In this document: in pieces, positions 2,310-63,563 of the stretch
Numbering within the stretch: the stretch's first letter is position 1
Layout of the letters: each line of letters starts with the position of its first letter
Assembly (NCBI GenBank): GCA_032718475.1
Contig: JAUCBJ010006637.1
Location: 62,714 to 126,713 of the forward strand
Direction of reading: 5' to 3'
From: Nemertoderma westbladi
Taxonomy: Eukaryota > Animalia > Xenacoelomorpha
DNA length: 64,000 bases
Notes under the pieces: model-generated
The model's input: only the letters and a program-made list of their open reading frames with translations
Databases searched by the model: none
Told to the model about the DNA's origin: nothing
Position numbers and translations under genes: made by a program

Positions 2310-2877
2310 CGAGGCTTGTAACAAAGGGGACGAGTGTTGTGTACTAACTATTCAATATACCCTAGTCTAGAACGACCGTGTTTAGTACATTGTGCGACAT
2401 AAAAACGATGTGAAAAGTATCCCTATTCTGCTATTGGTAGAGTAATGTTGTGACACAGATGATTTGGGATTCAACTAGCGGTATATTGCAGTATTGCCTC
2501 ACCACCCCACAGCCCACTATATACATGGACCTCCCTCTCTCTATAGCCCACAGGCCTATTCTTTATCTCTGGTCATTTTACTATTCTAACAGTTCTCAAG
2601 CCAGGTTCCAGGGATGAAGGGGTACCGGTAGGCTACGCCCTGATGCCAGTCCAGTCTGCCTGTTGTGCAGTAGTGTGTGTGTTACATACAGATACAAGGC
2701 CTACTAGATACCTAGGTACTACTAGCTGACTAGGCCTTGGTAGTAAGGCAGTAGGCCCCAGGCCCACACTTGCTCTAGGCCTAGGCCAGTGGCCAGTAGG
2801 CTATTCTAGGAATAGACTAGCTATTCTAGTTTATTACCGGTCAGCCGGTAGTTTATTTGCTGAAGTTTTGATTCACA

Positions 2878-4587
2878 ATGCAAAGAACTAGTGAGTTGGC
2901 CAGCTCACTGGTAATCACTAAATCTATGTTCGCGAACATCTGTTCGGAAAATGATATCTTTGTGCGGTCATTTCTCGAAGAATACCTCGACGCAAACTCC
3001 AGCTTTCTGGACGAGTACGTAGTTAAGAAATGTACGCCAGTTCATATTGCAGGGTGGATGAAACGTTCGCTTTCCTCTGTATCTAACAATCCCTCGACCA
3101 CCACAATGGCATTGCCTCTCTATCCGGTGCAATCTCCCCCCACAGTCGATGTACCAGCTCCAAGTTACCCAGAGACCTATCCGGTGCAACCTCCCCCCAC
3201 AGTCGATGTACCAGCTCCAAGTTACCCAGAGACCTATCCGGTGCAATCTCCCGCCACAGTCGATGTACCAGCTCCAAGTTACCCAGAGACCTATCCGGTG
3301 CAATCTCCCCTCACAGTCGATGTACCAGCTCCAAGTTACGCAGAGACCTATCCGGCGCAATCTCCCGCCACAGTCGATGCACCAGCTCCAAGTTACCCAG
3401 AGACCTATCCGGCGCAATCTCCCCTCACAGTCGATGTACCAGCTCCAAGTTACGCAGAGACCTATCCGGCGCAATCTCCCGCCACAGTCGATGCACCAGC
3501 TCCAAGTTACCCAGAGACCTATCCGGCGCAATCTCCCCTCACAGTCGATGTACCAGCTGAAAGTTACCCAGAGACCTATCCGGCGCAATCTCCCGCCACA
3601 GTCGATGCACCAGCTCCAAGTTACCCAGAGACCTATCCGGTGCAATCTCCCGCCACAGTCGATGCACCAGCTCCAAGTTACCCAGAGACCTATCCGGTGC
3701 AATCTCCCGCCACAGTCGATGCACCAGCTCCAAGTTACCCAGAGACCTATCCGGCGCAATCTCCACTCACAGTCGATGTACCAGCTCCAAGTTACCCAGA
3801 GACCAGTCTGAAGCAAGGACCAAAGACCAGTCTGAAGAAAAGACCAAAGACCTCTCTGAAGAAAAGACCAAAGACCAGTCTGAAGCAAAGACTCAAGATC
3901 CGGCGGAAGCAAAGACCAGAGACCAGTCTGAAGCAAAGATCGAACAGTCTGAAACAAAGACCAAAGACCAGTTTGAAGCAAAGACCAGTGAGAAAATGTG
4001 TGAAAAACCCTTCTAGGTACCCGTTTCGGGTTCGGCCTACACCTGTGACGCGATTCCGAATCCTGAGTTATCATCCGAAACACCAAAACATGAAGCGCCT
4101 CCAATCCGTTCCCAAACCATCATTCATGCTGCCTGTGGTGAGATTGCATCGTCTCAATTTCCAACAGAATGCTACGTCTTACCTTACACAACTCAACCCA
4201 TCATATAGGCCTACTTCAGAAATCGGACTGAATGAGATAGAAGAGGGTGAAGTGGAGTTTAAACATAACACAGGTGTGGCTGATAGAGGTATCAATGGGG
4301 TGGTAGAGGCTGTAGACTCTAGCCACACAGCCCCAAGTCTCCTACCTGACACCATACTAGACACCCCTCCCCTCTATCACCCGCAACAACCGGAAGTACC
4401 GTCAGGAATAATTCCTGCCTCCAGACCGGAACCTCTTGGGGACAACCCAATTAATTTATGGGAGGATGATACGCTACACGGAAGACCGTTAGATTCTGCG
4501 ACACCTGTAACACAAGAATCCCAGTCCCTCTTATCTGACCTGAATAGGCCAGAACTGGCAATGGATTTAATCAATGAAACCCCCTAA
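2878..4587 (+). CDS. Intronless 569-aa ORF of unknown function: unique N-terminus, 12 x 19-aa Pro-rich repeats, basic TSLKQRPK repeats, unique acidic/Pro-rich C-terminus
   Basis: ATG start; about 80 aa before and 200 aa after the repeats stay open in non-repetitive sequence, unlike the satellite-only ORFs. No family recognised with certainty. Confidence 0.5.
   Translation: MQRTSELASSLVITKSMFANICSENDIFVRSFLEEYLDANSSFLDEYVVKKCTPVHIAGWMKRSLSSVSNNPSTTTMALPLYPVQSPPTVDVPAPSYPETYPVQPPPTVDVPAPSYPETYPVQSPATVDVPAPSYPETYPVQSPLTVDVPAPSYAETYPAQSPATVDAPAPSYPETYPAQSPLTVDVPAPSYAETYPAQSPATVDAPAPSYPETYPAQSPLTVDVPAESYPETYPAQSPATVDAPAPSYPETYPVQSPATVDAPAPSYPETYPVQSPATVDAPAPSYPETYPAQSPLTVDVPAPSYPETSLKQGPKTSLKKRPKTSLKKRPKTSLKQRLKIRRKQRPETSLKQRSNSLKQRPKTSLKQRPVRKCVKNPSRYPFRVRPTPVTRFRILSYHPKHQNMKRLQSVPKPSFMLPVVRLHRLNFQQNATSYLTQLNPSYRPTSEIGLNEIEEGEVEFKHNTGVADRGINGVVEAVDSSHTAPSLLPDTILDTPPLYHPQQPEVPSGIIPASRPEPLGDNPINLWEDDTLHGRPLDSATPVTQESQSLLSDLNRPELAMDLINETP
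3121..3990 (+). repeat. 57-bp tandem repeat (~12 copies) followed by degenerate 24-bp repeats
   Basis: Unit tatccggtgcaatctcccgccacagtcgatgcaccagctccaagttacccagagacc, then agaccagtctgaagcaaagaccaa-like units. Confidence 0.95.
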
Positions 4588-8757: not shown

Positions 8758-9597
8758 CTATCCACTACAGACCGCGGCCTTCGCAGTAGCTCTGTTACCG
8801 TCCACTACCTCGCCCCAATCTCTCGCAGCTAACTTCGGCAACGCCGCCAATAACACCCGCTTCGCTACGTGAGCGTTAGTCTTCAACGCGCGGAGAACTT
8901 CATCAACCGTAACGTTATGCTCCGATTCGCGCCAACTGTCGTAGTCAGTTGGCAAGGCTAACGCGGCGTACGATAAACCAGCCTCCCTCGCGAGACAGGC
9001 CTCCGGGACCGTGGTCATATTAACCACATCGGCGCCCCACGAAGCGAACAACTGGCTCTCTGCTCGCGTCGAGAACCGAGGTCCTTCTATAGTGACAGCT
9101 GTCCCTCGAGAATGAAACTTAATCCCGAGTTCCTTCATGGTTTCTATTAGAACGTTCCGCGTCTCCCGACAGAACGGTTCCCCCATCGGGACGTGTGCGA
9201 CTCCGTGGAAATCGCTGTCAACCCGAGTTATTCCGTCGTAGAAAGTCGTTGCTCGGAGCCGCGTTCGGTCGATAAACTGGTCGATAACTACGATTTCGCC
9301 GGGGGCGATTCCCTCTCGTAAAGAACCGCAGGCGGTTGTTACTAAGACGTGGGTGCAGCCGTGGGCCCGTAGCGCCCAGATGTTGGCGCGGTAGTTGAGA
9401 GTCGACGGGCTCACAGAGTGGTCGGCTCCGTGTCGGGAGAGTAGCACTACGTCTACTCCGGATATGGTGCCGATAAGGAGGGGGGAAGACGGGGGTCCGT
9501 ACGGGGTCGATACGTTCAGCTTACGGAGGTCCGAGATGAATTCTACGTCCTCCAAACCTGTTCCACCGATAATACCAACGGTAATTTTCGACATCAT
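8758..9597 (-). CDS. MTAP: S-methyl-5'-thioadenosine phosphorylase, single coding exon, 279 aa
   Basis: VGIIGGTG, TPYG, LLSRHG, NYRANIWAL, GCTHVLVTTACGSLRE, DQFIDRT, TIEGPRFSTRAES, WGADVVNMTTVPE, TDYDSW: full-length animal-type MTAP. Confidence 0.97.
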   Translation of the reverse strand: MMSKITVGIIGGTGLEDVEFISDLRKLNVSTPYGPPSSPLLIGTISGVDVVLLSRHGADHSVSPSTLNYRANIWALRAHGCTHVLVTTACGSLREGIAPGEIVVIDQFIDRTRLRATTFYDGITRVDSDFHGVAHVPMGEPFCRETRNVLIETMKELGIKFHSRGTAVTIEGPRFSTRAESQLFASWGADVVNMTTVPEACLAREAGLSYAALALPTDYDSWRESEHNVTVDEVLRALKTNAHVAKRVLLAALPKLAARDWGEVVDGNRATAKAAVCSG

Positions 9598-12503: not shown

Positions 12504-12650
12504 TTTACTTTCACGTTTAAGGGCGAGAAAGGCGACAAAGGGGACCGTGGGAGCAGGGGGAAGAAGGGTCGATCTGGGATCGAAATACCCCAGCTGACCC
12601 AGTGTTTGTGGAGCGCCTTGGAAACCAATCGCGACGAGGGTCTAATACAG
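12504..12650 (+). CDS. CTHRC1: CTHRC1-like exon 2 (short collagen Gly-X-Y tract)
   Basis: tttatag|FTFTFKGEKGDKGDRGSRGKKGRSGIEIPQLTQCLWSALETNRDEGLIQ|gtaact; an alternative in-frame acceptor at 12522 is possible. Confidence 0.88.
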
Positions 12651-14364: not shown

Positions 14365-16670
14365 ATATCGAATAAACAAAATACATATGTAATATAATAT
14401 ACAATGAATAATTATAACCCTTACCATAATTGTATGCATGCATATGTTAATTTAGTTTAGTTTATTAGCCTTTACTTTGTCACTATAATATATATAATAT
14501 CTTAATTTTAAACACAAACTTTTATATTGTAGCTGCAGACTTTATATTATAAACTTAGGATAACAGCTAAATATGGGAATTCAACATAATCATTTTGAAT
14601 ACAGTTGGTGTTCTAGAAAATAAGTACAAGAACAGAAAGGGCGGAAAACTAGGGAACGCGTTGATGCGATGTGGGAAGATGCGTTGAGATATGAAGACCA
14701 GAATGGCGGGTTATGGCTATGTATTATGGTAGATGATTATCGCAATGCTGAGCTGATCCGCCCCCAGCTATTAGATTAGTTCTAACTATATATATGTGAC
14801 CTTGGTTTCAGGGTGGGTAATCAATTCAGAGAAACCGAAACCGAGACACAATCTCCATCGTTGTGGGACTGAAATATATTTAAAATAAAAAAATATGGCT
14901 TTGAAACCTTCCCAACTGGTTGAAAATTCAAGGCCTTGAAATTGTTGGGTCCAGATTAATTTCCATAACTACAGGGCCCTTTACTCTGCCTTTTTTCCTC
15001 TATTATTGCTAACATATCGCTCAATAGATTCGATGTAATCATACAGTAGAATTTAACATGACTTTAACTCCTCTTTATCATATTAAACAGAACCCACCTG
15101 TGTAACCCCTTGGTATAAGTGTTTATTTCATCACACACACGTAACGCACACTAATTAGTTCACCCAATTCACGAATCTAAATTCCAGAATATCCTTTTAG
15201 GCACCCACACCACCACCCCACCTAGAAAGGTACCTCACATCAAAAAACATATGAAATGAGCCGAACTGGTTTAAAAAATGTGAGAAAATTATTCATGACT
15301 TCAACTTCAATAATAATGAGCATTGTTTTGGAACATATTTTTCTTTTTAATTATGACATCATCTATATAGAATGTGTTATTCGTTCTTACGTCATATTCC
15401 GTATCGATTTAACTTTCGGACAGGTTTTATTACGAACAGCCAACTCTTCTCTACAACAATAGTCAACGTTTATACCAGCAGGTTTGCCGCTCCAACTAAT
15501 ATAACAAGTTACTGTACACGCGCCGGCATTGAGTGATATGGGATTAATTCGGGTATGCGTGAATACGGCACCCCCAATGCTAGACGATCAATAGCACTGC
15601 AGTTACTGGGGGGAGTTATTTTACATATATACGGTAACATATATCGACGTAACTTTCAAGAACATATGTTAGCTAATGTGTGGGTGGATGAATACAAGGT
15701 TGGTACTGTAGCTGGTAGGTTGACAATATACTGGTGTTTCACCAAGTTTATAGCAATTTACAGCAATGTAATACTGTACTGTAACTTCATGTACTAAACA
15801 ACTATAGTATCGTATCTTAGCACTTTAGATGGAAAATCTCAATCAAAAGGTGTCGTTTGTAGGCCCTATCATATTCAGTATGATACGCATATTTACTAAA
15901 CATAACACCAACACCTCTCACAAACTAATATTCTCATTCGAATCACAACACAATCATTGACACCTTTTAAAGAAGACAATGCAATCAGTGGGCCGTGTAA
16001 TACCGAAGTACCGGTAATATATATGCTGTACATATATATGAAGCACATATACTACGTACTGACATGAGCTAGAATCCAAGCTAGTAGGCCTATATATCTA
16101 CAGTATAAAAGCCATGTCCTAGGCCATGGTCTCCTAAACCTACTTAATGAGATTGCATGAAATTTGAAACAGAGATAGTTTCACCTTTCTCCTTCATGTT
16201 GGGTGCGATTTTTACATTTCATTTTCACGATTGGATATTTTCGCTTCATTCTTTAGCTACAGCGTTTGATAAAGGGTGTCTCCGACGGTATTGCAACAGT
16301 TACAGTGATTTGTTGGTTGATAGAAAGGCGTTGCAAGGATTCCAAATATGTAACACAATCTGAATTTCATTGTAAATTAGCTTAGATATGAGCGTTTGAG
16401 GGTGCATAGTTTTTATAACCACAAATTCATTAAAAAATATCTATAAAATTAAATTAAAGTGTTTACGAGCATTAATTCGAAATTATTTCAGCTAACGAGG
16501 TAGGGAAGGTTTTCACTTTTAGACATTTCGCCCTCTAGCGGTAGACTGGAGAACTGCATTCGGACTAACTAACATACAAAGATACAGATAATGGTGTCGG
16601 AGATATCTGCCAAAGAAATGCGAGGACTCCAGCCGCGGGTGTCTGTTAAATCACCTAGAATTCACCACGT

Positions 16671-16850
16671 TGTGAGTATCTATGTCTGTGTAGCACAGGA
16701 ATACAGGACATTCACCATGTGGCATTGAACTGCCCATTACTTCTCGATATCAAATCGGATAGTGATGATCTGCCGGACTTCTTTAAGAATCCTTGCGCTG
16801 CGGTTAAGTACACGTTCGAGGGACCTTCGCGCAGCACGAGGCTCAGCTAA
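16671..16850 (+). mobile_element. Degraded non-LTR retrotransposon ORF2 C-terminal CCHC zinc knuckle
   Basis: Translates CEYLCLCSTGIQDIHHVALNCPLL (C-x-C-x8-H-x4-C). Confidence 0.45.
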
Positions 16851-36093: not shown

Positions 36094-38574
36094 GGTCCAG
36101 AAACAGTACCAAGTCCATTGATCAAGAAAACTTGCCACCTCCATGCAGCATAAAGGAGGTGCCACCTGTAGCTGCATAGACCCTCTTACTAGGGCAAATC
36201 TGGTCCTGTAACTAGGAACCCCTTCGTTCTGGGATAGTGACACCCTTGGTCCTGGATTACGGACCCATATACTTGGCTGCAGAGGTATATGGCCTGACCA
36301 GGCAGATGGTGATCTACCAATGGCTGGTCAGGAGTAGAGTGTTCTCATGTCCACTCTGAGTGCACTTCACTGCGACCTGCACCTGGCAGCAGGGGTATAG
36401 GGAATGACCCAGCAGATGAGCTGCACAGCCAATGGTGGGTCATGTGCGTCAGAGTAGATATGGCTGATGGGCCTCATATCTGACTCCATTGCAACACCCA
36501 CCCTGTGGAATGGCAAACCAGGGTGTGGTATTTGCCCCGTGAGCTGACTCGGCAAAAAAGCACCCCCCAACCCCCACTATGGATTACATTAGTAATGCGG
36601 AGGTCCGGCCACTAGAATTACCGGACACAATCGGCCTCACAGGCGTCAGTTAACTCCTGACCGTCTCACCCGCAACTGGAGAGAGAGCGGCCAACAATTC
36701 TGTGAATGCCTTTCCTGATGACCTTTCTGGCCCAAACCCTGGGACACCAGGGAGGCCAGATTGTGAGGGGGAGAGGGATTCTGGAGTTGGAGGCTACTCT
36801 CATGTTCCACCACGACCAACAAAGCCATTGGTGAAGTCACAAGTCACAAGACTAGCCTCAGTAAACACCCTAACACTCGGGTCCCCAATGCGACAAGGTG
36901 AACTGACTGCCTTGGCAGATAAGCTTTCTCTTAGCGCAGTGGGTATTCAAGAGCACCGAATGCAGACTGGACAGACTGATGAGGTTCTGATTAAGGACAT
37001 GGGGGGCGGTTGGCGACTCGCCCTCGCATCAGCAGATGATAGTGGCAATGGTAGAATTGGTCTATTGATGAATCCAACTGCACATGCAGCATTGGACAAA
37101 ATAGACCAAATCTCCAACCGCATCATCAAAACAAATAAGTTGGTGCCAGTTCCCAAGAAGGGCAACCTAACACTCTATGGTTCTTTTCGGGGAATCTCAT
37201 TGATCTCGATTGCTGCAAAGCTATACAATAGAATTCTATTAAATCGCATCAGGGATCCCATTGAGAGACTGCTCCGTGGAAATCAGAATGGGTTCCGTAA
37301 AGGTCGGGGGACCATGGAGCCCATTTTGGCACTTAGACGGATAATTGAAGAGTTATCAAAAAAGAAAGGCAGGCATCTGCTGTTATCTTTGTTGACTTCT
37401 TCAAGGCCTTTGATTCAGTCTCTCGCTCACGTATGTTCAGCATACTTTCATTATATGGGATTCCTGATGAAATTATTGCAGCAATCAGACCAGTATACGA
37501 TGGTTCGACAACATTTGTGTCTACTGTTGACGGTGACACAGAACCATTTGAAGTGTTATGGGGCGTCCTGATGGGAGACACACTTGCACCATTCTTGTTC
37601 ATAATTGTGGTTGACTATGTTCTACGCATGTCCTTCTAGATCATCATAATGATGATGGGGTGATGATAACTCCACCTACTGGCTCCAGAAGTCGAGGAAA
37701 TCCTGCCAAGTACCTAACTGATCTAGACTTTGCTGATGACTTAGGAGTACTCTCAGAATCACTAGAGGGAGCCCAACTCAACGGCTCCTCAGCTCATTAG
37801 AACAGGCTGCTTCTAGTTTTTTTTTATTAACTCCAAAAAGACAAAAATGTTGACGGTTAACTTTGAAAGTCCTCAGCAAGTCTCTCACCGGATGAGCATA
37901 AGCTCAAAGGATGGTATGCTTGAGCATGTGGACGACTTCTGTTACCTGGTATCATGGATCCGGAAGTCAGGTGAGGACTTTCGCATACATAAGGGAAAGG
38001 CAAGGGTAGCATTGAATAGGCTTTCCAGGATTTGGACACATCGAATTCATCGGAAACTTAAGGTACGATTATTTAGAGCAGCAGTAGTTCCAGTACTCCT
38101 ATATGGGAGTCAATGCTGGGCTCTAACTGCTGAGGACACCAAATCTCTGGATGGCACATTCACAAGAATGCTACGCCGGGTTCATTGTGTCAAGTACAAT
38201 GCACACATCTCCAACCAGACACTATATAACATTGGAGGTGTCTCATTGGTTCCCCCAAGCTTGACACTAGAACAAAATCGCCTCCGCTTTGCAGGACATT
38301 GCTTTCGCCGTGAGGACCAGCCAGTGCATAATCTTGTACTTTGGCAGCCTCATGGAGTGAATAAGCATGGTGGACAGCCCATGACTTTCTTGAGACGCAT
38401 CTTAAAGGACACTGGCCTTGAAGATGCGGATGATCTAGCAAATGTCATGGGCGATAGGGAGTTGTGGCGGCGAAATTTTGTCGACAAGTCGGCACAGCAT
38501 TCTTAATATATATATGATATATATATATAATGCAGCTGCAATGCAGCATGCCGATCGTAGTAATAGTAGTAGTA
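36094..38574 (+). mobile_element. RTE-type LINE with 5' region, internal deletion and frameshifts; 14-bp TSD; antisense in CHCHD3 intron 3
   Basis: APE start (LASVNTLTL, VGIQEHR), RT (RGISLISIAAKLYNRILLNRI, NQNGFRKGRGT, GDTLAPFLFIIVVDYVLR, LDFADDL), (TAG)n tail; TSD gtaaca[t/g]cctacct at 36080-36093 and 38575-38588. Confidence 0.93.
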
Positions 38575-46836: not shown

Positions 46837-49796
46837 GGGGGGGGTATAATAATAGACCATAAATTTTGGACGCTCTATAGATGCATCTAAAATTATTTTT
46901 TTGCTAGGAGTCATATTTTGAGTTTTGTGACTAAGGAATTAAAATTTTGGAAAAATTCAAAATTTTTCAAAAATTTTATTTTTTCGCCAAAATTTTGCCA
47001 AAAAGGCAAAAAATGAAAAAAATGCTAAGGCTTCTAGCCAAATTATCCAAATACTTCAAAACTCACGTGAGAAAGTCAGTAGGACGTCCCAAACGATTTG
47101 CATTGACAAAATTTTGATATCTTGTCGAGAAGAGCAAAAAGCACCAAAAGGGACATTTTTGGTCCAAAAAATGACCAAAATTTCAAAAATTTGGCCCAAT
47201 TTTTCGAAAAAATTGAGTTTTTAAAAAAATATCAAAATTTTGTCAATGCATTTTGTAAAGGACCCCACAATCATCGATCATGCAAAAAATCAGCACATTT
47301 GGGCCATTTTTGACAGAGCCTTAGCATTTTTCGTTTGAAAAATGCTAATTGGAGAAAAACAGGTTTAAAGTTAAAGTTTGTTTATTTTATTATGAAGTTA
47401 AATTTTTGAAATTTCGATTAAATGAGATAAACTCAGTGAATTCTAATAAAATTTTTTTCATCTAGTTCCAAATTTTATGTAGATTCCAAAAATTGTATTA
47501 TTATCGCATGTTAATCTTAAGGTCATATTATTTCATATAAAAGACATGTTAAAGGGTGTGAATTTTTTGACAAAATTTGAACAAAAAACTGAAATCAATA
47601 AAAAATAATAATTCAAATTAGGCACTATATTAATATTCATTAATTAAAATTAAATTTAAAAATTTAAAATGAAATTTAAAAAGTTAATTAAAAGGCCCCA
47701 GATTTATATGACTTATGATCGGGTGCTTGCCATTTCTTTGATGGTTTGTGTTCAGTACTTTTCTGTTTACGTTTTAGGTTGACCTTCTTTGCTCGTTCTG
47801 CAAGGTCACCATCATCTTCCTCAAGGCCAAGCTTCTTCAAAATTATCTGTTCTGCTGAACACCCCCGATTGTGAACTAAAACAGTATACGAAACATGAAA
47901 CATGAGTGTACTTAGACCCACAAACGTTTCTTTAGATAGACGAGTCCATAGCCGTGAATGCAGAGATTCGTTCGGATTTTGTGTGAGGCCAGGGATACAG
48001 CGTTCCAGAATTTCGCTCGTTGTTAGGCGTTCATAAACAGGTAAAATAAACTTCATGTTTGCCTCTTTTATAAATGTTACATTTTTGTAACTTATAGCAT
48101 TGTTTTTGAATTTACACCACTTATTTTCAGGGCATAACTCATGTTGTTTCTCAACATTATCTCCATAATCACAATAGTGATGTGTTGCAGCCACGATTTC
48201 ACTTCGAATCGTGCTTATGAGCACTGATTTTTCAGTCTCTGAGAGTTTATCTATATCAACATCTGCTATATTCTTCACGATCGTATTTCGGTAATATGAC
48301 TGCAATTGGTGACATCGACTATCAGTCAACCCTCCCTTGCCTCCAAGTTTATGAGTTTTGCGAGCATTGGAAAGACCTGTATATAGACGCTTCGCAACGT
48401 GGTTCAGGCACTCTTTCTTCTGCACTGTTACATTCTGCTCTCTGTAAGGATCGGACTCCAATATGTTCTTCATAACGCTGCTGTCGCCATCCGATACCAT
48501 TGATTGATATATGACACCATTATTTGATAGGGATCTATTGAATAGTTTAACAGCTAAATGAGGTTCCATACCTGAACTGGACCCTGAATAATTTATATTA
48601 CACTCATGATCAGCATTGCCATCTTCTTCTTTGTTGCGGCTACAAATATTACAGTATTTTGAACAAACATCGAAATCAATGACATGTCCTGTATTTTCGG
48701 ATATGATAAACGCGGCACCATAAAGTGATTGATGGCCTCTTTTCATCCATGTACCGTCAAAAGATATACATATTTCCCTGTCAATCTCTTTCATTGCACA
48801 ATTTTTTGCATTTCCTCGTGCAAGTGATTCCGTGACCTTCGAGATTTCGTTGACATGAAATTGCCAGGCTCTCTTCGCAACAGGAGATGGTAGTGACATT
48901 ATTCTAGAAAACGTCTCTGCATCACCATGGGTCCCACCAACACAAAGCCAAGCCAGTACTGCACGAAGATTCACATCCGCTGTTTTTCTTCCAGGACGAG
49001 GTTCAGTTCGAGAAACTTGGTCGCTCGTGAAAGTAGAATATTGCCAATCACAACGTGAACATTTCCCCTCAAAATTGGTACTATAACCACGATGTGACTC
49101 ATTTATCACTACTGTACCGTCACATTGCTTATCATCATGTTTCTCCATTATCAGTTTCTTTATTATTTGCGTTGCTACAACGTTATATCCCTCCAACTTT
49201 CCATCTGAGGGTAGGACATTCAGATTCGATGCTATTAGCGACGGTTCTCGATCTTTTGGCACTACCGGTACCGGTACTGAAATCGATTTCATATGCGCGA
49301 GGTTCAATGTACCGGTATCTTGTTTCTTGGTTCCTGTTTCTTGTTTCTTGGTTCTTGGCATACTGTATTATAAAAATTATATCGTCAACGATGTATGTAC
49401 AATTTTCGATTCGAAGATGGAGGACGCTCTATAGTCTGTGTCCGTCAAAACTGCTGATTGCATTGATTGAAACACCAATACAGCATACAGTTAGTAACTA
49501 AAACATAACAATGTGCAAATTCTCGTTTTAAACCTCCCGCTAAAATACATTCCAACCTGTAATAACTTATTAGCCAATACAATGATTTCAGTGCAACAAG
49601 CCGGAAATTTTGTTAATTTTTGTCATTTTTTTCAAATAATTTTCAGGATGCGTGTCTATATAATGAGCCATAACTCGAAAACTAGACAAGCTAGAAATAA
49701 ACTGTTTACAGATTTGAAATCTCCATAAAATTTGCTACAAGAAACGGGTATAAAATTTTTTTTATATTTTTTGACCCCAATTATTATACCCCCCCC
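46837..49796 (-). mobile_element. Kolobok-type DNA transposon, apparently complete (2960 bp)
   Basis: TTAA TSD (46833-46836, 49797-49800); perfect 17-bp TIR ggggggggtataataat / attattatacccccccc; internal transposase ORF. Confidence 0.9.
47688..49361 (-). CDS. DDE transposase (Kolobok / Mutator-like domain), 557 aa
   Basis: SFDGTWMKRGHQS, CSKYCNIC, NYSGSSSGME, VSDGDSS, KKECLNHVAKR, TQNPNESLHSRLW; uninterrupted ORF. Confidence 0.93.
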   Translation of the reverse strand: MPRTKKQETGTKKQDTGTLNLAHMKSISVPVPVVPKDREPSLIASNLNVLPSDGKLEGYNVVATQIIKKLIMEKHDDKQCDGTVVINESHRGYSTNFEGKCSRCDWQYSTFTSDQVSRTEPRPGRKTADVNLRAVLAWLCVGGTHGDAETFSRIMSLPSPVAKRAWQFHVNEISKVTESLARGNAKNCAMKEIDREICISFDGTWMKRGHQSLYGAAFIISENTGHVIDFDVCSKYCNICSRNKEEDGNADHECNINYSGSSSGMEPHLAVKLFNRSLSNNGVIYQSMVSDGDSSVMKNILESDPYREQNVTVQKKECLNHVAKRLYTGLSNARKTHKLGGKGGLTDSRCHQLQSYYRNTIVKNIADVDIDKLSETEKSVLISTIRSEIVAATHHYCDYGDNVEKQHELCPENKWCKFKNNAISYKNVTFIKEANMKFILPVYERLTTSEILERCIPGLTQNPNESLHSRLWTRLSKETFVGLSTLMFHVSYTVLVHNRGCSAEQIILKKLGLEEDDGDLAERAKKVNLKRKQKSTEHKPSKKWQAPDHKSYKSGAF

Positions 49797-52940: not shown

Positions 52941-53628
52941 CTTTGGTATAACCATAGGGTACTGTGCTTTGGTATAACCATAGGGTACTGTGCTTTGGTA
53001 TAACCATAGGGTACTGTGCTTTGGTATAACCATATAGGGTACTGTGCTTTGGTATAACCATAGGGTACTGTGCTTTGGTATAACCATATAGGGTACTGTG
53101 CTTTGGTATAACCATAGGGTACTGTGCTTTGGTATAACCATAGGGTACTGTGCTTTGGTATAACCATAGGGTACTGTGCTTTGGTATAACCATAGGGTAC
53201 TGTGCTTTGGTATAACCATAGGGTACTGTGCTTTGGTATAACCATAGGGTACTGTGCTTTGGTATAACCATAGGGTACTGTGCTTTGGTATAACCATAGG
53301 GTACTGTGCTTTGGTATAACCATATAGGGTACTGTGCTTTGGTATAACCATAGGGTACTGTGCTTTGGTATAACCATATAGGGTACTGTGCTTTGGTATA
53401 ACCATAGGGTACTGTGCTTTGGTATAACCATAGGGTACTGTGCTTTGGTATAACCATAGGGTACTGTGCTTTGGTATAACCATAGGGTACTGTGCTTTGG
53501 TATAACCATATAGGGTACTGTGCTTTGGTATAACCATAGGGTACTGTGCTTTGGTATAACCATAGGGTACTGTGCTTTGGTATAACCATAGGGTACTGTG
53601 CTTTGGTATAACCATATAGGGTACTATG
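52941..53628. repeat. 26/28-bp minisatellite (ctttggtataaccatagggtactgtg), ~26 copies
   Basis: Direct inspection. Confidence 0.96.
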
Positions 53629-54330
53629 CTTTTTTGGTTAGTCGAATTCATTATTAGAAATCGAAAACGAGATTAGATGCAAAATTTTAATTTTCATTTT
53701 TTAATATTAAAAGAACATATATACATGCATACAGACAGAAAATATTAAAAGAGCACCAAAATATATATTAGTTTAGTATAGGGTAGTATTACCTACTACC
53801 CTATAGTAAGGTCATGGTACATATTTTAATCTTCTGTGTTCTAAACATTAATCAGAAAAGTAATTAACATAAGGTTTATTAGCATAAAGAAAATAAATAC
53901 ATTATGACTTACTGTACTGTATAAAGTTCAAAATACTGTAGTATACGGTCCTGGCCCTGGGACCCTGGGTCCATTTCAGCGTTATCCGTACAGTATCAGC
54001 GCGATTGATGTCCCAGTGTGTTATACAGTATGTATTAACAGTCTTGGACATCACCAGCAATGTACCGCCGCTACCGGTACTACATTTATGTATTTATTCA
54101 AAGATTCCTCGCGACTCGGAAATATTATCTCACCTCAAATGAATTCTATAATTTATATATAAATATATATTTAGGTAATTAAAACAAATAATAACAACTG
54201 TGTACAGGTGTAAAGCAGTCACAAAATACGGGTGTGACAACAAGCGAACAAGGATATGAAAATATATACTGTATATCTTGCAGCCGTGGATTTTGCTTTT
54301 ATCCTCCAAATATAATATGTAGGGCCTATT

Positions 54331-54450
54331 TCATTGGACTTTGAACATATCAACTTTACTGCTAGAATTATTGTAGCCTTTACTTTCCATGTGATCCACA
54401 ATGGCCTTGTATATCTCATCTCGATTCATCATCATTCCGAATAAATATGG
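54331..54450 (-). CDS. GRAMD4: GRAMD4-like terminal exon
   Basis: gttttttag|PYLFGMMMNRDEIYKAIVDHMESKGYNNSSSKVDMFKVQ*; matches the P..FG.M..RDE end of the GRAMD4 GRAM domain; phase 0. Confidence 0.85.
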   Translation of the reverse strand, partial: PYLFGMMMNRDEIYKAIVDHMESKGYNNSSSKVDMFKVQ

Positions 54451-57400
54451 CTAAAAAACAATCACAGTAACCTTTTAGATTTAGCGGAACTACAATAAAT
54501 AATAATAATAAATATGGATAAAAAACAATCACAGTAACCTTTTAGATTTAGCGGAACTACATTCAATAATAATAATAAATATGGATAAAAAACAATCACA
54601 GTAACCTTTTAGATTTAGCGGAACTACATTCAATAATAATAATAAATATGGATAAAAAACAATCACAGTAACCTTTTAGATTTAGCGGAACTACATTCAA
54701 TAATAATAATAAATATGGATAAAAAACAATCACAGTAACCTTTTAGATTTAGCGGAACTACATTCAATAATAATAATAAATATGGATAAAAAACAATCAC
54801 AGTAACCTTTTAGATTTAGCGGAACTACAATCAATAATAATAATAAATATGGCTAAAAAACAATCACAGTAACCTTTTAGATTTAGCGGAACTACATTCA
54901 ATAATAATAATAAATATGGATAAAAAACAATCACAGTAACCTTTTAGATTTAGCGGAACTACATTCAATAATAATAATAAATATGGATAAAAAACAATCA
55001 CAGTAACCTTTTAGATTTAGCGGAACTACAATAAATAATAATAATAAATATGGATAAAAAACAATCACAGTAACCTTTTAGATTTAGCGGAACTACAATA
55101 AATAATAATAATAAATATGGATAAAAAACAATCACAGTAACCTTTTAGATTTAGCGGAACTACATTCAATAATAATAATAAATATGGATAAAAAACAATC
55201 ACAGTAACCTTTTAGATTTAGCGGAACTACATTCAATAATAATAATAAATATGGATAAAAAACAATCACAGTAACCTTTTAGATTTAGCGGAACTACATT
55301 CAATAATAATAATAAATATGGATAAAAAACAATCACAGTAACCTTTTAGATTTAGCGGAACTACATTCAATAATAATAATAAATATGGATAAAAAACAAT
55401 CACAGTAACCTTTTAGATTTAGCGGAACTACATTCAATAATAATAATAAATATGGATAAAAAACAATCACAGTAACCTTTTAGATTTAGCGGAACTACAT
55501 TCAATAATAATAATAAATATGGATAAAAAACAATCACAGTAACCTTTTAGATTTAGCGGAACTACATTCAATAATAATAATAAATATGGATAAAAAACAA
55601 TCACAGTAACATTTTAGATTTAGCGGAACTACAATCAATAATAACAATAAATATGGCTAAAAAACAATCACAGTAACCTTTTAGATTTAGCGGAACTACA
55701 ATCAATAATAACAATAAATATGGCTAAAAAACAATCACAGTAACCTTTTAGATTTAGCGGAACTACAATAAATAATAATAATAAATATGGCTAAAAAACA
55801 ATCACAGTAACCTTTTAGATTTAGCGGAACTACAATAAATAATAATAATAAATATGGCTAAAAAACAATCACAGTAACCTTTTAGATTTAGCGGAACTAC
55901 AATAAATAATAATAATAAATATGGCTAAAAAACAATCACAGTAACCTTTTAGATTTAGCGGAACTACAATAAATAATAATAATAAATATGGCTAAAAAAC
56001 AATCACAGTAACCTTTTAGATTTAGCGGAACTACAATCAATAATAACAATAAATATGGCTAAAAAACAATCACAGTAACCTTTTAGATTTAGCGGAACTA
56101 CAATAAATAATAATAATAAATATGGCTAAAAAACAATCACAGTAACCTTTTAGATTTAGCGGAACTACAATAAATAATAATAATAAATATGGATAAAAAA
56201 CAATCACAGTAACCTTTTAGATTTAGCGGAACTACAATAAATAATAATAATAAATATGGCTAAAAAACAATCACAGTAACCTTTTAGATTTAGCGGAACT
56301 ACAATAAATAATAATAATAAATATGGCTAAAAAACAATCACAGTAACCTTTTAGATTTAGCGGAACTACAATCAATAATAACAATAAATATGGCTAAAAA
56401 ACAATCACAGTAACCTTTTAGATTTAGCGGAACTACAATAAATAATAATAATAAATATGGCTAAAAAACAATCACAGTAACCTTTTAGATTTAGCGGAAC
56501 TACAATAAATAATAATAATAAATATGGATAAAAAACAATCACAGTAACCTTTTAGATTTAGCGGAACTACATTCAATAATAATAATAAATATGGATAAAA
56601 AACAATCACAGTAACCTTTTAGATTTAGCGGAACTACATTCAATAATAATAATAAATATGGATAAAAAACAATCACAGTAACCTTTTAGATTTAGCGGAA
56701 CTACATTCAATAATAATAATAAATATGGATAAAAAACAATCACAGTAACCTTTTAGATTTAGCGGAACTACATTCAATAATAATAATAAATATGGATAAA
56801 AAACAATCACAGTAACCTTTTAGATTTAGCGGAACTACATTCAATAATAATAATAAATATGGATAAAAAACAATCACAGTAACCTTTTAGATTTAGCGGA
56901 ACTACATTCAATAATAATAATAAATATGGATAAAAAACAATCACAGTAACCTTTTAGATTTAGCGGAACTACATTCAATAATAATAATAAATATGGATAA
57001 AAAACAATCACAGTAACCTTTTAGATTTAGCGGAACTACAATAAATAATAACAATAAATATGGCTAAAAAACAATCACAGTAACCTTTTAGATTTAGCGG
57101 AACTACAATCAATAATAACAATAAATATGGCTAAAAAACAATCACAGTAACCTTTTAGATTTAGCGGAACTACAATAAATAATAATAATAAATATGGCTA
57201 AAAAACAATCACAGTAACCTTTTAGATTTAGCGGAACTACAATAAATAATAATAATAAATATGGCTAAAAAACAATCACAGTAACCTTTTAGATTTAGCG
57301 GAACTACAATAAATAATAATAATAAATATGGCTAAAAAACAATCACAGTAACCTTTTAGATTTAGCGGAACTACAATAAATAATAATAATAAATATGGCT

Positions 57401-57798
57401 AAAAAACAATCACAGTAACCTTTTAGATTTAGCGGAACTACAATCAATAATAACAATAAATATGGCTAAAAAACAATCACAGTAACCTTTTAGATTTAGC
57501 GGAACTACAATAAATAATAATAATAAATATGGCTAAAAAACAATCACAGTAACCTTTTAGATTTAGCGGAACTACAATAAATAATAATAATAAATATGGC
57601 TAAAAAACAATCACAGTAACCTTTTAGATTTAGCGGAACTACATTCAATAATAATAATAAATATGGCTAAAAAACAATCACAGTAACCTTTTAGATTTAG
57701 CGGAACTACAATAAATAATAATAATAAATATGGCTAAAAAACAATCACAGTAACCTTTTAGATTTAGCGGAACTACAATCAATAATAACAATAAATAT
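54440..57798. repeat. 67-bp intronic minisatellite (~50 copies) containing the GRAMD4 3' splice site
   Basis: Unit aataaatatgg[c/a]taaaaaacaatcacagtaaccttttagatttagcggaactacaataaataataat; the lowest-coordinate copy is the real intron/exon junction. Confidence 0.96.
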
Positions 57799-58038
57799 GT
57801 AATATTATGGTTTTGTTCAGAAATGAAAAAATTGAGAAAGCGCGTCACCGGGGGTTGAACCAGCGGTATACTTACGTTTCAGTCCACATCAGTAGCGCTA
57901 ACCAGTTCAGCCACTTGCCCCTGACATTCACTCTCCCACCTAATCCACTTCTACTTCTCACGCTGGTAGCGCTGGTTCAACCCCCGGTGACGCGCTTTCT
58001 CATTTTTTCCATTTCTGAACAAAACCATAATATTACAT
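57797..58038. mobile_element. 69-bp near-perfect inverted repeat containing a tRNA-like Pol III promoter
   Basis: Arms 57797-57865 and 57970-58038; the - strand has TGGCTGAACTGG (A box) and GGTTCAACCC (B box). Confidence 0.7.
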
Positions 58039-58518
58039 CTTTAATTACAGTTGCATTAACAGCTGAACTCCAATTTATTTATATAATAATAAATAAACAA
58101 ATTGATTGCGTTTCCTTTTACGATTTTAACTTATTTACGTAAAATATCTAGAAATATAAATATAAAGTAATTAACAATATAGGGAACCTACGGACAATCT
58201 TCAATATGTAACACTATATACACATACTGGGCCTCGTGCTGCGCGAAGGCCCCACGAACGTGTAACACTATATACACATACATTCTGTAGTTTTAGAGCA
58301 CCGGGTTTTGTCATCTACATACCCACCTATAGATACACTTTTAGATATAGATAGACTCTTATAGATACAATTTTTGCCACAATTTGTTTCGCTAAACCAA
58401 TCAATCTACATTCCTTATTTAAAAATGTTACATTACTATTCAAAATAATGTATTTTCCAATTAATATTAGAGCAAAATTATAGATAGGCTTTAATAATAT
58501 AAATGAAGTTTGAGTTAC

Positions 58519-58760
58519 CTGTAGTCCATTCTTTACAATAATCTCCATACAGACACCACTTCCTGGGATCACAGCGTAAGGTTTACATTTCTCTATAGAA
58601 ATAACTTCATTTAATTCTATTGTCAAGTTCTTAGTAGTTTGAGTCTTCGCTCTCAAGAAACACAGGAAATTATCAGTTAGAAATAATCTCCCGTGTTTAA
58701 ATGGAGAAATTGTTTTATCCTTAAGAATCCTGGTTGTCCTGTACCCACTTGATGGCCATT
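58519..58760 (-). CDS. GRAMD4: GRAMD4-like exon (GRAM domain core)
   Basis: gttttag|(E)WPSSGYRTTRILKDKTISPFKHGRLFLTDNFLCFLRAKTQTTKNLTIELNEVISIEKCKPYAVIPGSGVCMEIIVKNGLQ|gtaact; G.L.LT.N.LCF and PGSG motifs. Confidence 0.9.
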
Positions 58761-59228
58761 CTAAAACATTTTAAAAATATTCCAGTATATTATTATTCTA
58801 GTATATATGTAATTCAGAGCTTGAATCTATACAGTTATGATAATCTATGAGTTTAGCAAAATCGCATTTATTTTGTTACTCAAGCAGTCATTGAATGGTC
58901 GTGTACAAAGAAGATGGGACATTCCCAACACACATGGCGAATGAAGGAAGCAAGCCATTTTCTCCTATATTGCCATTACCACTTTTTGGGAATTAAGGGA
59001 TTCATTCCCTTGTTTTATGTTTATTAATTTTGGTTTCCTTGTCCCCTTTTTTATCACTGAAGTTTCCTTTTTCCCCTTTATTTTAACTTTTCTGTTTCCT
59101 TTTTTTGTGAAATTTACCGCTGGGAGGGCTGCATTTCCTTCCAAGCTACAAAGGGAACTAAATTCGCCTTGATGAAACAACAATAATTTGGGGACGTAAA
59201 TTCGCTTAAAGGGGACCTAAGTCCGCAA

Positions 59229-62200
59229 TTACCTGTGGGATGAGCACCCGGCACCTGTCGTTCTGTACACCCACACACCTACCTGGTAAGGCGCTGTCTG
59301 GAGTGAGCACCCGGCACCTGCCGTTCTGTACACCCACACACCTACCTGGTAAGGCGCTGTCTGTAGTGAGCACCCGGCACCTGCCGTTCTGTACACCCAT
59401 ACACCTACCTGGTAAGGCGCTGTCTGGAGTGAGCACCCGGCACTTGCCGTTCTGTACACCCACACACCTACCTGGTAAGGCGCTGTCTGTAGTGAGCACC
59501 CGGCACCTGCCGTTCTGTACACCCATACACCTACCTGGTAAGGCGCTGTCTGGAGTGAGCACCCGGCACCTGCCGTTCTGTACACCCACATACCTACCTG
59601 GCAAGGCGCTGTCTGGAGTGAGCACCCGGCACCTGCCGTTCTGTACACCCACACACCTACCTGGTAAGGCGCTGTCTGTAGTGAGCACCCGGCACCTGTC
59701 GTTCTGTACACCCACACACCTACCTGGTAAGGCGCTGTCTGGAGTGAGCACCCGGCACCTGTCGTTCTGTACACCCACACACCTACCTGGTAAGGCGCTG
59801 GCTGGAGTGAGCACCCGGCACCTGCCGTTCTGTACACCCACATACCTGCCTGGTAAGGCGCTGTCTGTAGTGAGCACCCGGCACCTGCCGTTCTGTACAC
59901 CCACACACCTACCTGGTAAGGCGCTGGCTGGAGTGAGCACCCGGCACCTGCCGTTCTGTACACCCACACACTTACCTGGTAAGGCGCTGTCTGGAGTGAG
60001 CACCCGGCACCTGTCGTTCTGTACACCCACACATCTACCTTGGAAGGCGCTGTCTGGAGTGAGCACCCGGCACCTGTCGTTCTGTACACCCACACACTTA
60101 CCTGGTAAGGCGCTGTCTGGAGTGAGCACCCGGCACCTGCCGTTCTGTACACCCACACACCTACCTGGTAAGGCGCTGGCTGGAGTGAGCACCCGGCACC
60201 TGCCGTTCTGTACACCCACACACTTACCTGGTAAGGCGCTGTCTGGAGTGAGCACCCGGCACCTGCCGTTCTGTACACCCACACACCTACCTGGCAAGGC
60301 GCTGTCTGGAGTGAGCACCCGGCACCTGCCGTTCTGTACACCCACACACTTACCTGGTAAGGCGCTGTCTGGAGTGAGCACCCGGCACCTGCCGTTCTGT
60401 ACACCCACACACTTACCTGGTAAGGCGCTGTCTGGAGTGAGCACCCGGCACCTGCCGTTCTGTACACCCACACACTTACCTGGTAAGGCGCTGTCTGGAG
60501 TGAGCACCCGGCACCTGCCGTTCTGTACACCCACACACTTACCTGGTAAGGCGCTGTCTGGAGTGAGCACCCGGCACCTGCCGTTCTGTACACCCACACA
60601 TCTACCTGGTAAGGCGCTGTCTGGAGTGAGCACCCGGCACCTGTCGTTCTGTACACCCACACACCTACCTGGTAAGGCGCTGTCTGTAGTGAGCACCCGG
60701 CACCTGTCGTTCTGTACACCCACACACCTACCTGGTAAGGCGCTGTCTGGAGTGAGCACCCGGCACCTGTCGTTCTGTACACCCACACACCTACCTGGTA
60801 AGGCGCTGGCTGGAGTGAGCACCCGGCACCTGCCGTTCTGTACACCCACATACCTGCCTGGTAAGGCGCTGTCTGTAGTGAGCACCCGGCACCTGCCGTT
60901 CTGTACACCCACACACCTACCTGGTAAGGCGCTGGCTGGAGTGAGCACCCGGCACCTGCCGTTCTGTACACCCACACACTTACCTGGTAAGGCGCTGTCT
61001 GGAGTGAGCACCCGGCACCTGTCGTTCTGTACACCCACACATCTACCTTGGAAGGCGCTGTCTGGAGTGAGCACCCGGCACCTGTCGTTCTGTACACCCA
61101 CACACTTACCTGGTAAGGCGCTGTCTGGAGTGAGCACCCGGCACCTGCCGTTCTGTACACCCACACACCTACCTGGTAAGGCGCTGGCTGGAGTGAGCAC
61201 CCGGCACCTGCCGTTCTGTACACCCACACACTTACCTGGTAAGGCGCTGTCTGGAGTGAGCACCCGGCACCTGCCGTTCTGTACACCCACACACTTACCT
61301 GGTAAGGCGCTGTCTGGAGTGAGCACCCGGCACCTGCCGTTCTGTACACCCACACATCTACCTGGTAAGGCGCTGTCTGGAGTGAGCACCCGGCACCTGT
61401 CGTTCTGTACACCCACACACCTACCTGGTAAGGCGCTGGCTGGAGTGAGCACCCGGCACCTGCCGTTCTGTACACCCACACACCTACCTGGTAAGGCGCT
61501 GTCTGGAGTGAGCACCCGGCACCTGCTGCCGTTCTGTACACCCACACACTTACCTGGTAAGGCGCTGTCTGCAGTGAGCACCCGGCACCTGCCGTTCTGT
61601 ACACCCACACACTTACCTGGTAAGGCGCTGTCTGGAGTGAGCACCCGGCACCTGTCGTTCTGTACACCCACACACCTACCTGGTAAGGCGCTGTCTGCAG
61701 TGAGCACCCGGCACCTGCCGTTCTGTACACCCACACACTTACCTGGTAAGGCGCTGTCTGGAGTGAGCACCCGGCACCTGTCGTTCTGTACACCCACACA
61801 CCTACCTGGTAAGGCGCTGTCTGGAGTGAGCACCCGGCACCTGCCGTTCTGTACACCCACACACCTACCTGGTAAGGCGCTGGCTGGAGTGAGCACCCGG
61901 CACCTGCCGTTCTGTACACCCACATACCTGCCTGGTAAGGCGCTGTCTGGAGTGAGCACCCGGCACCTGCCGTTCTGTACACCCACACACCTACCTGGTA
62001 AGGCGCTGTCTGGAGTGAGCACCCGGCACCTGTCGTTCTGTACACCCACACACTTACCTGGTAAGGCGCTGTCTGGAGTGAGCACCCGGCACCTGTCGTT
62101 CTGTACACCCACACACTTACCTGGTAAGGCGCTGTCTGGAGTGAGCACCCGGCACCTGCCGTTCTGTACACCCACACACTTACCTGGTAAGGCGCTGTCT

Positions 62201-63390
62201 GGAGTGAGCACCCGGCACCTGTCGTTCTGTACACCCACACACTTACCTGGTAAGGCGCTGTCTGGAGTGAGCACCCGGCACCTGTCGTTCTGTACACCCA
62301 CACACCTACCTGGTAAGGCGCTGTCTGGAGTGAGCACCCGGCACCTGTCCGTTCTGTACACCCACACACTTACCTGGTAAGGCGCTGTCTGCAGTGAGCA
62401 CCCGGCACCTGTCGTTCTGTACACCCACACACCTACCTGGTAAGGCGCTGTCTGGAGTGAGCACCCGGCACCTGTCGTTCTGTACACCCACACACCTACC
62501 TGGTAAGGCGCTGTCTGGAGTGAGCACCCGGCACCTGCCGTTCTGTACACCCACACACCTACCTGGTAAGGCGCTGTCTGGAGTGAGCACCCGGCACCTG
62601 CCGTTCTGTACACCCACACACCTACCTGGTAAGGCGCTGTCTGGAGTGAGCACCCGGCACCTGCCGTTCTGTACACCCACACACCTACCTGGTAAGGCGC
62701 TGTCTGGAGTGAGCACCCGGCACCTGTCGTTCTGTACACCCACACACCTACCTGGTAAGGCGCTGTCTGGAGTGAGCACCCGGCACCTGCCGTTCTGTAC
62801 ACCCACACACCTACCTGGTAAGGCGCTGTCTGGAGTGAGCACCCGGCACCTGTCGTTCTGTACACCCACACACCTACCTGGTAAGGCGCTGTCTGGAGTG
62901 AGCACCCGGCACCTGCCGTTCTGTACACCCACACACCTACCTGGTAAGGCGCTGTCTGGAGTGAGCACCCGGCACCTGTCGTTCTGTACACCCACACACC
63001 TACCTGGTAAGGCGCTGTCTGGAGTGAGCACCCGGCACCTGCCGTTCTGTACACCCACACACCTACCTGGTAAGGCGCTGTCTGGAGTGAGCACCCGGCA
63101 CCTGTCGTTCTGTACACCCACACACCTACCTGGTAAGGCGCTGTCTGGAGTGAGCACCCGGCACCTGTCGTTCTGTACACCCACACACCTACCTGGTAAG
63201 GCGCTGTCTGGAGTGAGCACCCGGCACCTGCCGTTCTGTACACCCACACACCTACCTGGTAAGGCGCTGTCTGGAGTGAGCACCCGGCACCTGTCGTTCT
63301 GTACACCCACACACCTACCTGGTAAGGCGCTGTCTGGAGTGAGCACCCGGCACCTGCCGTTCTGTACACCCACACACCTACCTGGTAAGG
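59229..63390. repeat. 63-bp intronic minisatellite (~66 copies) containing the GRAMD4 5' splice site
   Basis: The - strand unit is GTA[G/A]GTGTGTGGGTGTACAGAACGGCAGGTGCCGGGTGCTCACTCCAGACAGCGCCTTACCAG. Confidence 0.97.
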
Positions 63391-63563
63391 GTGTTTCCTG
63401 TTGTTCCAACCCAAATAGTTCAGTAAAGGTTGTATTGTCTATCAGAGGATCTTCCCTAATCATGCCACACGGTACCATGAGTGCTGCATTAACCCGACTA
63501 AATGTCCCTGCTAGTATATTCATACCTGGAGACCCGCTTTTTGTCTCCACGCTTCTTTGTATT
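63382..63563 (-). CDS. GRAMD4: GRAMD4-like internal exon (gene continues beyond window)
   Basis: tttacag|IQRSVETKSGSPG...DNTTFTELFGLEQQETPLP g|gtaggt; F.E.F.L...E.PL is the GRAM N-terminus; phase 1 joins the 58760 exon. Confidence 0.82.

Follow-up and report, generated by a model that had tools for sequence, protein, structure and literature searches.

A 67-bp minisatellite reiterating the last 3' splice site of a GRAMD4-like gene in Nemertoderma westbladi: a large mirage-class array with decoy acceptors in two states

How is the right 3' splice site found when the last intron of a gene offers that site some fifty times over, and how has half of the copies come to carry AT in place of AG? These questions are raised by a minisatellite of Nemertoderma westbladi, located in a window of 64,000 nucleotides (GenBank assembly GCA_032718475.1, contig JAUCBJ010006637.1, positions 62,714 to 126,713 of the forward strand), and all coordinates below refer to positions in this window. 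Tandem Repeats Finder assigns a period of 67 bp, 50.1 copies and 98% matches to the stretch 54440-57799, and on the minus strand the spacing is exactly 67 nt for all 50 units. Each unit consists of 56 nt of intron type, including a T-rich tract that is followed by AG or AT, and 11 nt identical to the start of the last exon. The array is a tandem repeat spanning an exon-intron boundary of its host gene. A preliminary description of the locus had spoken of about 50 tandem copies of the intron's own 3' splice site occurring in two states, and this is confirmed by the unit-by-unit reading: 25 of the 50 units carry AG (24 decoys and the true site) and 25 carry AT.

The host gene is read from the minus strand, where exons 63563-63382, 58760-58519 and 54450-54331 join into a single open frame. 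The middle one is the penultimate exon with the GRAM core, whose donor at 58519 would be paired with a site of the acceptor array, and it matches the Pfam GRAM family with an E-value of 3.5e-8 (33.7 bits compared with a cut-off of 23.6). A HMMER search gave 63 matches, the best ones being mostly proteins of 550-700 aa aligned near the C-terminus, and the last exon aligns with 11 homologues, starting right after the junction. Names were checked for 10 clusters among the best 17 of the 63 matches: four were GRAMD4-like, the best match included, one was a GRAM-domain name, three were uninformative and two unnamed, and the name of another family occurred in none of these 10. The upstream exon (63382-63563), from the donor of which a second array is seeded (see below), is placed by the open frame and by one weak homologue match (E 0.003). 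A word-based protein search with the GRAM exon returned no match, a PDB search a single weak one (E 0.21), and the leads from an Atlas search were GRAM/PH-like only. The GRAM domain, the GRAMD4-like best matches and the homology of the last exon support the earlier identification of the gene as GRAMD4, an assignment made from the C-terminal part of the protein, the N-terminal part lying outside the window.

The acceptor in actual use could be read from one assembled contig of sequencing run X1 with a length of 2,751 nt and a depth of 48.5. Positions 45-857 of this record are the same as window 53640-54452 with 0 differences, positions 856-1099 correspond to window 58519-58762, and the loose end of the contig at 54452 is identical to 58521-58550, from which it follows that donor 58519 is joined to the last acceptor at 54450 over the whole 4,068-nt intron. 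Among the assembled contigs no junction other than this true one was seen, and 49 upstream acceptor copies are skipped in it (one contig, one run). The true AG at 54451-54452 on the minus strand, which lies within the last array unit and directly precedes 54450, is supported by the open spliced frame and by homology in addition to the spliced contig. It should be kept in mind that the library type of X1 is unrecorded, that assembled contigs drop rare isoforms, and that the array is known from the window, X2 and X4 and not from the allele of X1, the contig of which shows 2 differences from the window in the penultimate exon. A retrocopy would in principle be another source of the contig. X1 gave no coverage of one unit of either array or of unique intron sequence, and the contig, which departs from the reference at 58762, did not match the donor unit; such gaps carry no weight as evidence, either on the decoys or on the donor used upstream. 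Together with the frame it defines the final exon region at 53640-54450 (minus strand), with 39 codons and a stop at 54450-54331 and a 3' UTR reaching to at least 53640. A 26-bp array at 52941-53632 starts just beyond the covered 3' UTR, and as the spliced contig extends 44 letters past 53640, this third array may contain the end of the transcript.

Since polypyrimidine tract, AG and the first 11 exon bases are the same in the decoys as in the true site, the choice between them would have to rest on what lies beyond +11. The 11 intact copies at the beginning of the array, as transcribed, speak against a simple 5' to 3' scan for the first AG. From +12 to +60 after the true site the sequence contains 63% purine and 4 GAR triplets, compared with 45% and 0 after a decoy. 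Because purine-rich exon sequence and a nearby 3' end come after the true site and after none of the decoys, exon-side enhancers combined with terminal-exon definition would be the most likely selector of the true acceptor. RNA structure was also considered as a selector and was rejected, as the predicted folding of the true site and of two decoy contexts does not surpass that of shuffled sequences (z 0.27, 1.05 and 1.11). Competition in cis between duplicated acceptors is said to have been the subject of classic experiments by Reed and Maniatis in 1986.

A second array is found in the previous intron, where a 63-bp unit reiterates the donor side at 59241-63390 (minus strand). It was detected by Tandem Repeats Finder, and in X4 one of its units has a depth of 941 compared with 14. 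This array contains 66 donor copies, 63 with GT and 3 with GC; 19 of the 63 GT copies have the GTAAGT form, and there is a duplication of its own at a lag of 16 units. The anatomy of the acceptor and donor arrays supports the earlier view that two consecutive introns have each been expanded from their own splice junction. The 63-bp donor unit corresponds to 21 codons and the frame of the upstream exon stays open to residue 418 from the exon start, so that splicing from a decoy donor would add 21-aa repeats to the protein without a frameshift. By eye, an internal pyrimidine-rich CAG is seen in each donor unit 15 nt before the AG:GT, which suggests possible microexons or recursive-splicing points.

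For the acceptor array, the state of each copy is given by the position of its first exon-like base, on the minus strand and in transcript order. The 5'-most block (57063-57733) has AG in 11 of 11 units and is followed by an all-AT block (56527-56996, 8/8), an intact-decoy block (55656-56460) with AG in 12 of 13, and a proximal dead block (54517-55589) with AT in 16 of 17 and a lone AG at 54852, after which comes the true site. The two states are strongly clumped, with 9 runs compared with 26 expected and none of 20,000 shuffles giving a number that low. All five copies at a distance of up to 335 nt from the true site are dead, and the nearest intact decoy is 402 nt away. The preliminary description was accurate in stating that the 17 or so nearest copies are dead except one, and also in its two mostly intact blocks, but the all-AT block between them had been left unnamed.

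Only 5 of the 67 unit columns vary, 4 of them commonly. A T/A column at -45 falls into 11 runs, compared with the 9 runs of the AG/AT column, and it is linked to the latter with Fisher p values of 4e-8 (next unit) and 2e-6 (same unit). As this marker is equally clumped and tightly linked, the dead state marks a unit type. In addition, there is a higher-order duplication within 55110-57588 (minus strand), where 16 units at about 57588-56517 recur 21 units (1,407 bp) downstream, at about 56181-55110, with 15 of 16 identical. Since the repeated stretch includes an intact as well as a dead block, the two apparent AG/AT block pairs represent one event.

The expectation under neutral turnover was evaluated with two models, both of which are toy models with a test statistic picked after the data were seen. 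In the first model the last unit was free to seed copies and the runs were not conditioned on clumping. Here 16 or all of the 17 nearest copies were dead in 0-2.2% of the runs and the five nearest copies in 0.6-5.8%, and with 6 of 9 settings at most 5% of the arrays reached the clumping of the real array. The second model had nucleotide-level breakpoints, demanded AG at the last site, and was conditioned on array size, dead fraction and no more than 11 runs; with its 12 settings this proximal pattern, 16 or more dead among the nearest 17, was obtained in 9.5-24% of the runs. The AG/AT blocks have the look of a minisatellite in ordinary turnover, and neutral turnover suffices to produce them.

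Our preferred reading, to which we assign a probability of roughly 0.72, is that the array is a mirage minisatellite (a term used for amphioxus, see below) that was likely amplified by ordinary turnover and is likely tolerated, the one spliced transcript seen making use of the last copy only. It may have originated by local duplication of the 67-nt junction segment, perhaps aided by a 10-nt direct repeat, and slippage or unequal exchange would then have expanded it, a duplication of about 1.4 kb being one of the steps. The AG/AT pattern could then be ascribed to one G>T change in a unit type carrying a second marker, with subsequent spread of this type in blocks. The same 10-nt word is present at both ends of the array, as expected for a microhomology-seeded duplication or for a partial end unit.

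Among the alternatives, the one that survives best is the proposal of the preliminary description that selection purged competing acceptors near the real one, although we find it unlikely. Enhancers of the true exon would activate acceptors a few hundred bases upstream, so that alleles with AG lost from the proximal copies would have been favoured, and copies further away could have kept theirs without harm. The loss of AG from 16 of the 17 nearest copies and from all five within 335 nt is in agreement with such a process and is seldom obtained with the unconditioned neutral models (0-2.2%); however, when the models are matched for clumping the pattern is obtained in 10-24% of the runs, as opposed to 0-2% for the unmatched ones. 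The commonest single variant does strike the AG, where the chance that one of 4-5 variable columns falls on it is p 0.12-0.14. Against selection we note that the linked -45 marker outside the AG shows the same blocks, that the block pairs go back to one duplication, and that we are probably dealing with one mutation event in one array, which makes the effective sample about 1. Furthermore, one intact decoy is as close as 402 nt to the true site, and 24 decoys in all have kept their AG. Purging is no more than a possible explanation for the blocks. The comparison between the two arrays does favour it: 25 of the 49 acceptor decoys, which are transcribed before their true site, are dead, while 62 of the 65 donor decoys, transcribed after theirs, keep GT. 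Slightly more doubtful still is the wider idea that splice fidelity steers minisatellite evolution asymmetrically, with acceptor decoys purged near exon enhancers and donor decoys left intact. If it were true, the two arms of the process would be visible next to each other in this gene, which would provide a natural ruler for the reach of exon definition.

The decoys had also been thought to give an early stop and possibly regulated truncated isoforms. All 24 are in frame and lead to a tail of 40 aa compared with 39 aa in the native protein, which means that the stop is not early, while the other part of the claim stands in that a hydrophobic tail replaces the native C-terminus (GRAVY 1.34 compared with -0.56 for the native tail). 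The sense strand of the array contains neither AATAAA nor ATTAAA, and the 3' UTR of a decoy transcript would consequently be longer by up to 3.3 kb. Since a transcript spliced to a decoy in the last intron is without a downstream junction, junction-dependent NMD would not apply. Regulated use of the decoys would then mean either a GRAMD4 isoform with the last 36 residues exchanged for the hydrophobic tail or a lowered expression via the long 3' UTR, both of which we judge very improbable. That all 24 decoys yield nearly the same 40-aa hydrophobic tail might be taken in its favour, as might the lengthening of the UTR and the use of proximal pseudo-donors in human 6-16 and CBS intron 13 (PMC1557585). 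The sameness of the tails, however, is a consequence of the repeat, and AT-rich codons account for their hydrophobicity; the tail is without a match in Pfam, and a motif that occurs in 33 of 63 homologues is lost by the swap. With the sole spliced contig using the true acceptor, and with a decoy product that would be a full-length protein with a swapped tail, the notion of regulated truncated isoforms finds no support here.

The array is present in other samples as well. In contigs of X2, a possible source of the window, the tandem joint leading back 67 nt is found and the unit depth exceeds that of the flanks tens of times. Runs X5 and X8 contributed nothing further. X4 represents a different sample and a different study, with its own SNP and indel alleles, many of them in the 3' UTR and the exon; here the joint has a depth of 381 and the unit 640-1,078 compared with about 13-15 for the flanks, where summed contig depth is not equivalent to copy number. 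A second individual also carries the acceptor array. That the array or its block pattern should be an assembly artefact is scarcely credible, for near-identical AT-rich repeats are indeed error-prone and an array-spanning read is not among the data, but the joints and the raised depths recur in X2 and in the independent X4, and the variants are few, discrete and linked.

The array abuts at its 5' end on a high-copy inverted-repeat element (57792-58093, no strand assigned) with 77-nt arms at 57792-57868 and 57967-58043 and a thousands-fold summed depth in the DNA runs X3 and X4, which is likely a non-autonomous transposon. Further upstream in the transcript, about 1.6 degenerate 67-bp units with a spacing of 67 nt are seen at 58061-58163 (minus strand). 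Their score is reached by 1-2 of 1,000 shuffles, and because the stretch is AT-rich and in part overlaps the high-copy element this is weak evidence; being located 5' of the inverted-repeat element, these units suggest that the array may predate the insertion. The last intron also harbours a second very high-copy dispersed repeat at 58226-58263, of which another copy is found near 16809-16846.

Long tandem arrays are common in this window, where 13 of them cover 32% of the sequence. When 50 peptides from the flanks of these 13 arrays, together with 2 other peptides, were compared with Pfam, none reached the cut-off (3 weak matches, E 0.009-0.06); as the two known GRAMD4 junctions likewise went unflagged, this comparison carries no weight. 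Repeats also occur within a 571-aa open frame at 2872-4587 (plus strand), which contains in-frame repeats of 57 bp and 24 bp, has no Pfam match and begins with what we by eye take to resemble a phosphodiesterase N-terminus. Two stretches at about 12600-12650 and 15600-15700 (plus strand), ending in GT donors, presumably resemble GALNT exons, as judged by eye; for the stretch at 15600-15700 a Pfam search gave no match. An MTAP open frame without introns (278 aa, 8761-9594, minus strand) is at most 59% identical to the 120 matches listed and may be a retrogene or have lost its introns; in a tree of 38 of these 120 matches it took no definite place among the animals. The remaining frames are a Mutator-like transposase of 559 aa at 47691-49367 (minus strand) and a broken LINE-type reverse transcriptase at 36654-38506 (plus strand).

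Arrays of this kind are already known from lancelets and human genes, and the present one is a large case of the mirage class. In amphioxus, "mirages" are tandem repeats over exon-intron boundaries, the named cases being BflGb6, BflGb9, Adh3, troponin C and PGBD5 (PMC3087553, PMC3902484), with BflGb6 affected on the acceptor side (PMC3087553) and Adh, troponin C and PGBD5 described alike (PMC3902484). A good many of the units there retain the splice signal and others have lost it, splicing is reported to be undisturbed and turnover is concerted (PMC3087553). The likeness is close: the units span the end of the intron and the start of the exon, 25 of 50 keep the AG in our array, the one spliced contig uses the authentic site, and turnover is reflected in the 98% identity, the linked unit types in blocks and the higher-order duplication. 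In amphioxus both 5' and 3' borders can be affected, and here both an acceptor and a donor side are. The differences from what is given for BflGb6 are the number of units, 50 compared with 3-6, and their identity, 98% compared with 81-100%, and our array has in addition a clean two-state AG/AT mosaic. For BflGb6 the boundary units are reported to be excluded from homogenisation, a trait that does not belong to the mirage definition (PMC3087553). The 3' terminal unit of our array is identical to the commonest intact type B (17 of 50), and such an exclusion may be absent at this end; at the other end the weak degenerate units lie 5' of the inserted element.

In humans, CBS 844ins68 is described as a two-copy, 68-bp duplication of an acceptor junction in which the distal site is used (PMC2630376). 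It resembles our array in having nearly the same unit size and layout, with the distal copy spliced and a normal mRNA, and it differs in having 2 copies rather than 50 and in preceding an internal exon rather than the last one. Donor-side VNTRs have been described for F7 IVS7 (37 bp), 6-16, CBS IVS13, LMNB2 and PDGF intron 4 (PMC1557585) and for ABCA7 intron 18 (PMC5954066). They share with our arrays that a minisatellite reiterates a splice site and that the authentic site next to the exon is the main or only one used, and the neighbouring 63-bp donor array matches them directly. In these donor-side cases the true site comes first in the transcript, whereas it comes last in our acceptor array, and a first-come rule can thus not explain the choice. 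What differs here from the cases cited is the scale (50 units with 24 live decoys), the two-state mosaic, and the combination of an acceptor and a donor array in consecutive introns.

The fact that 24 sequence-identical upstream acceptors can be skipped implies that the choice of the 3' splice site is probably set from the exon side in this gene and not by taking the first AG. The array is a ready-made natural construct for testing such exon-side choice, and it is at the same time a trap for gene annotation. The finding would carry more weight if data pooled over many such arrays showed that acceptor copies are purged near the exon and donor copies are not.
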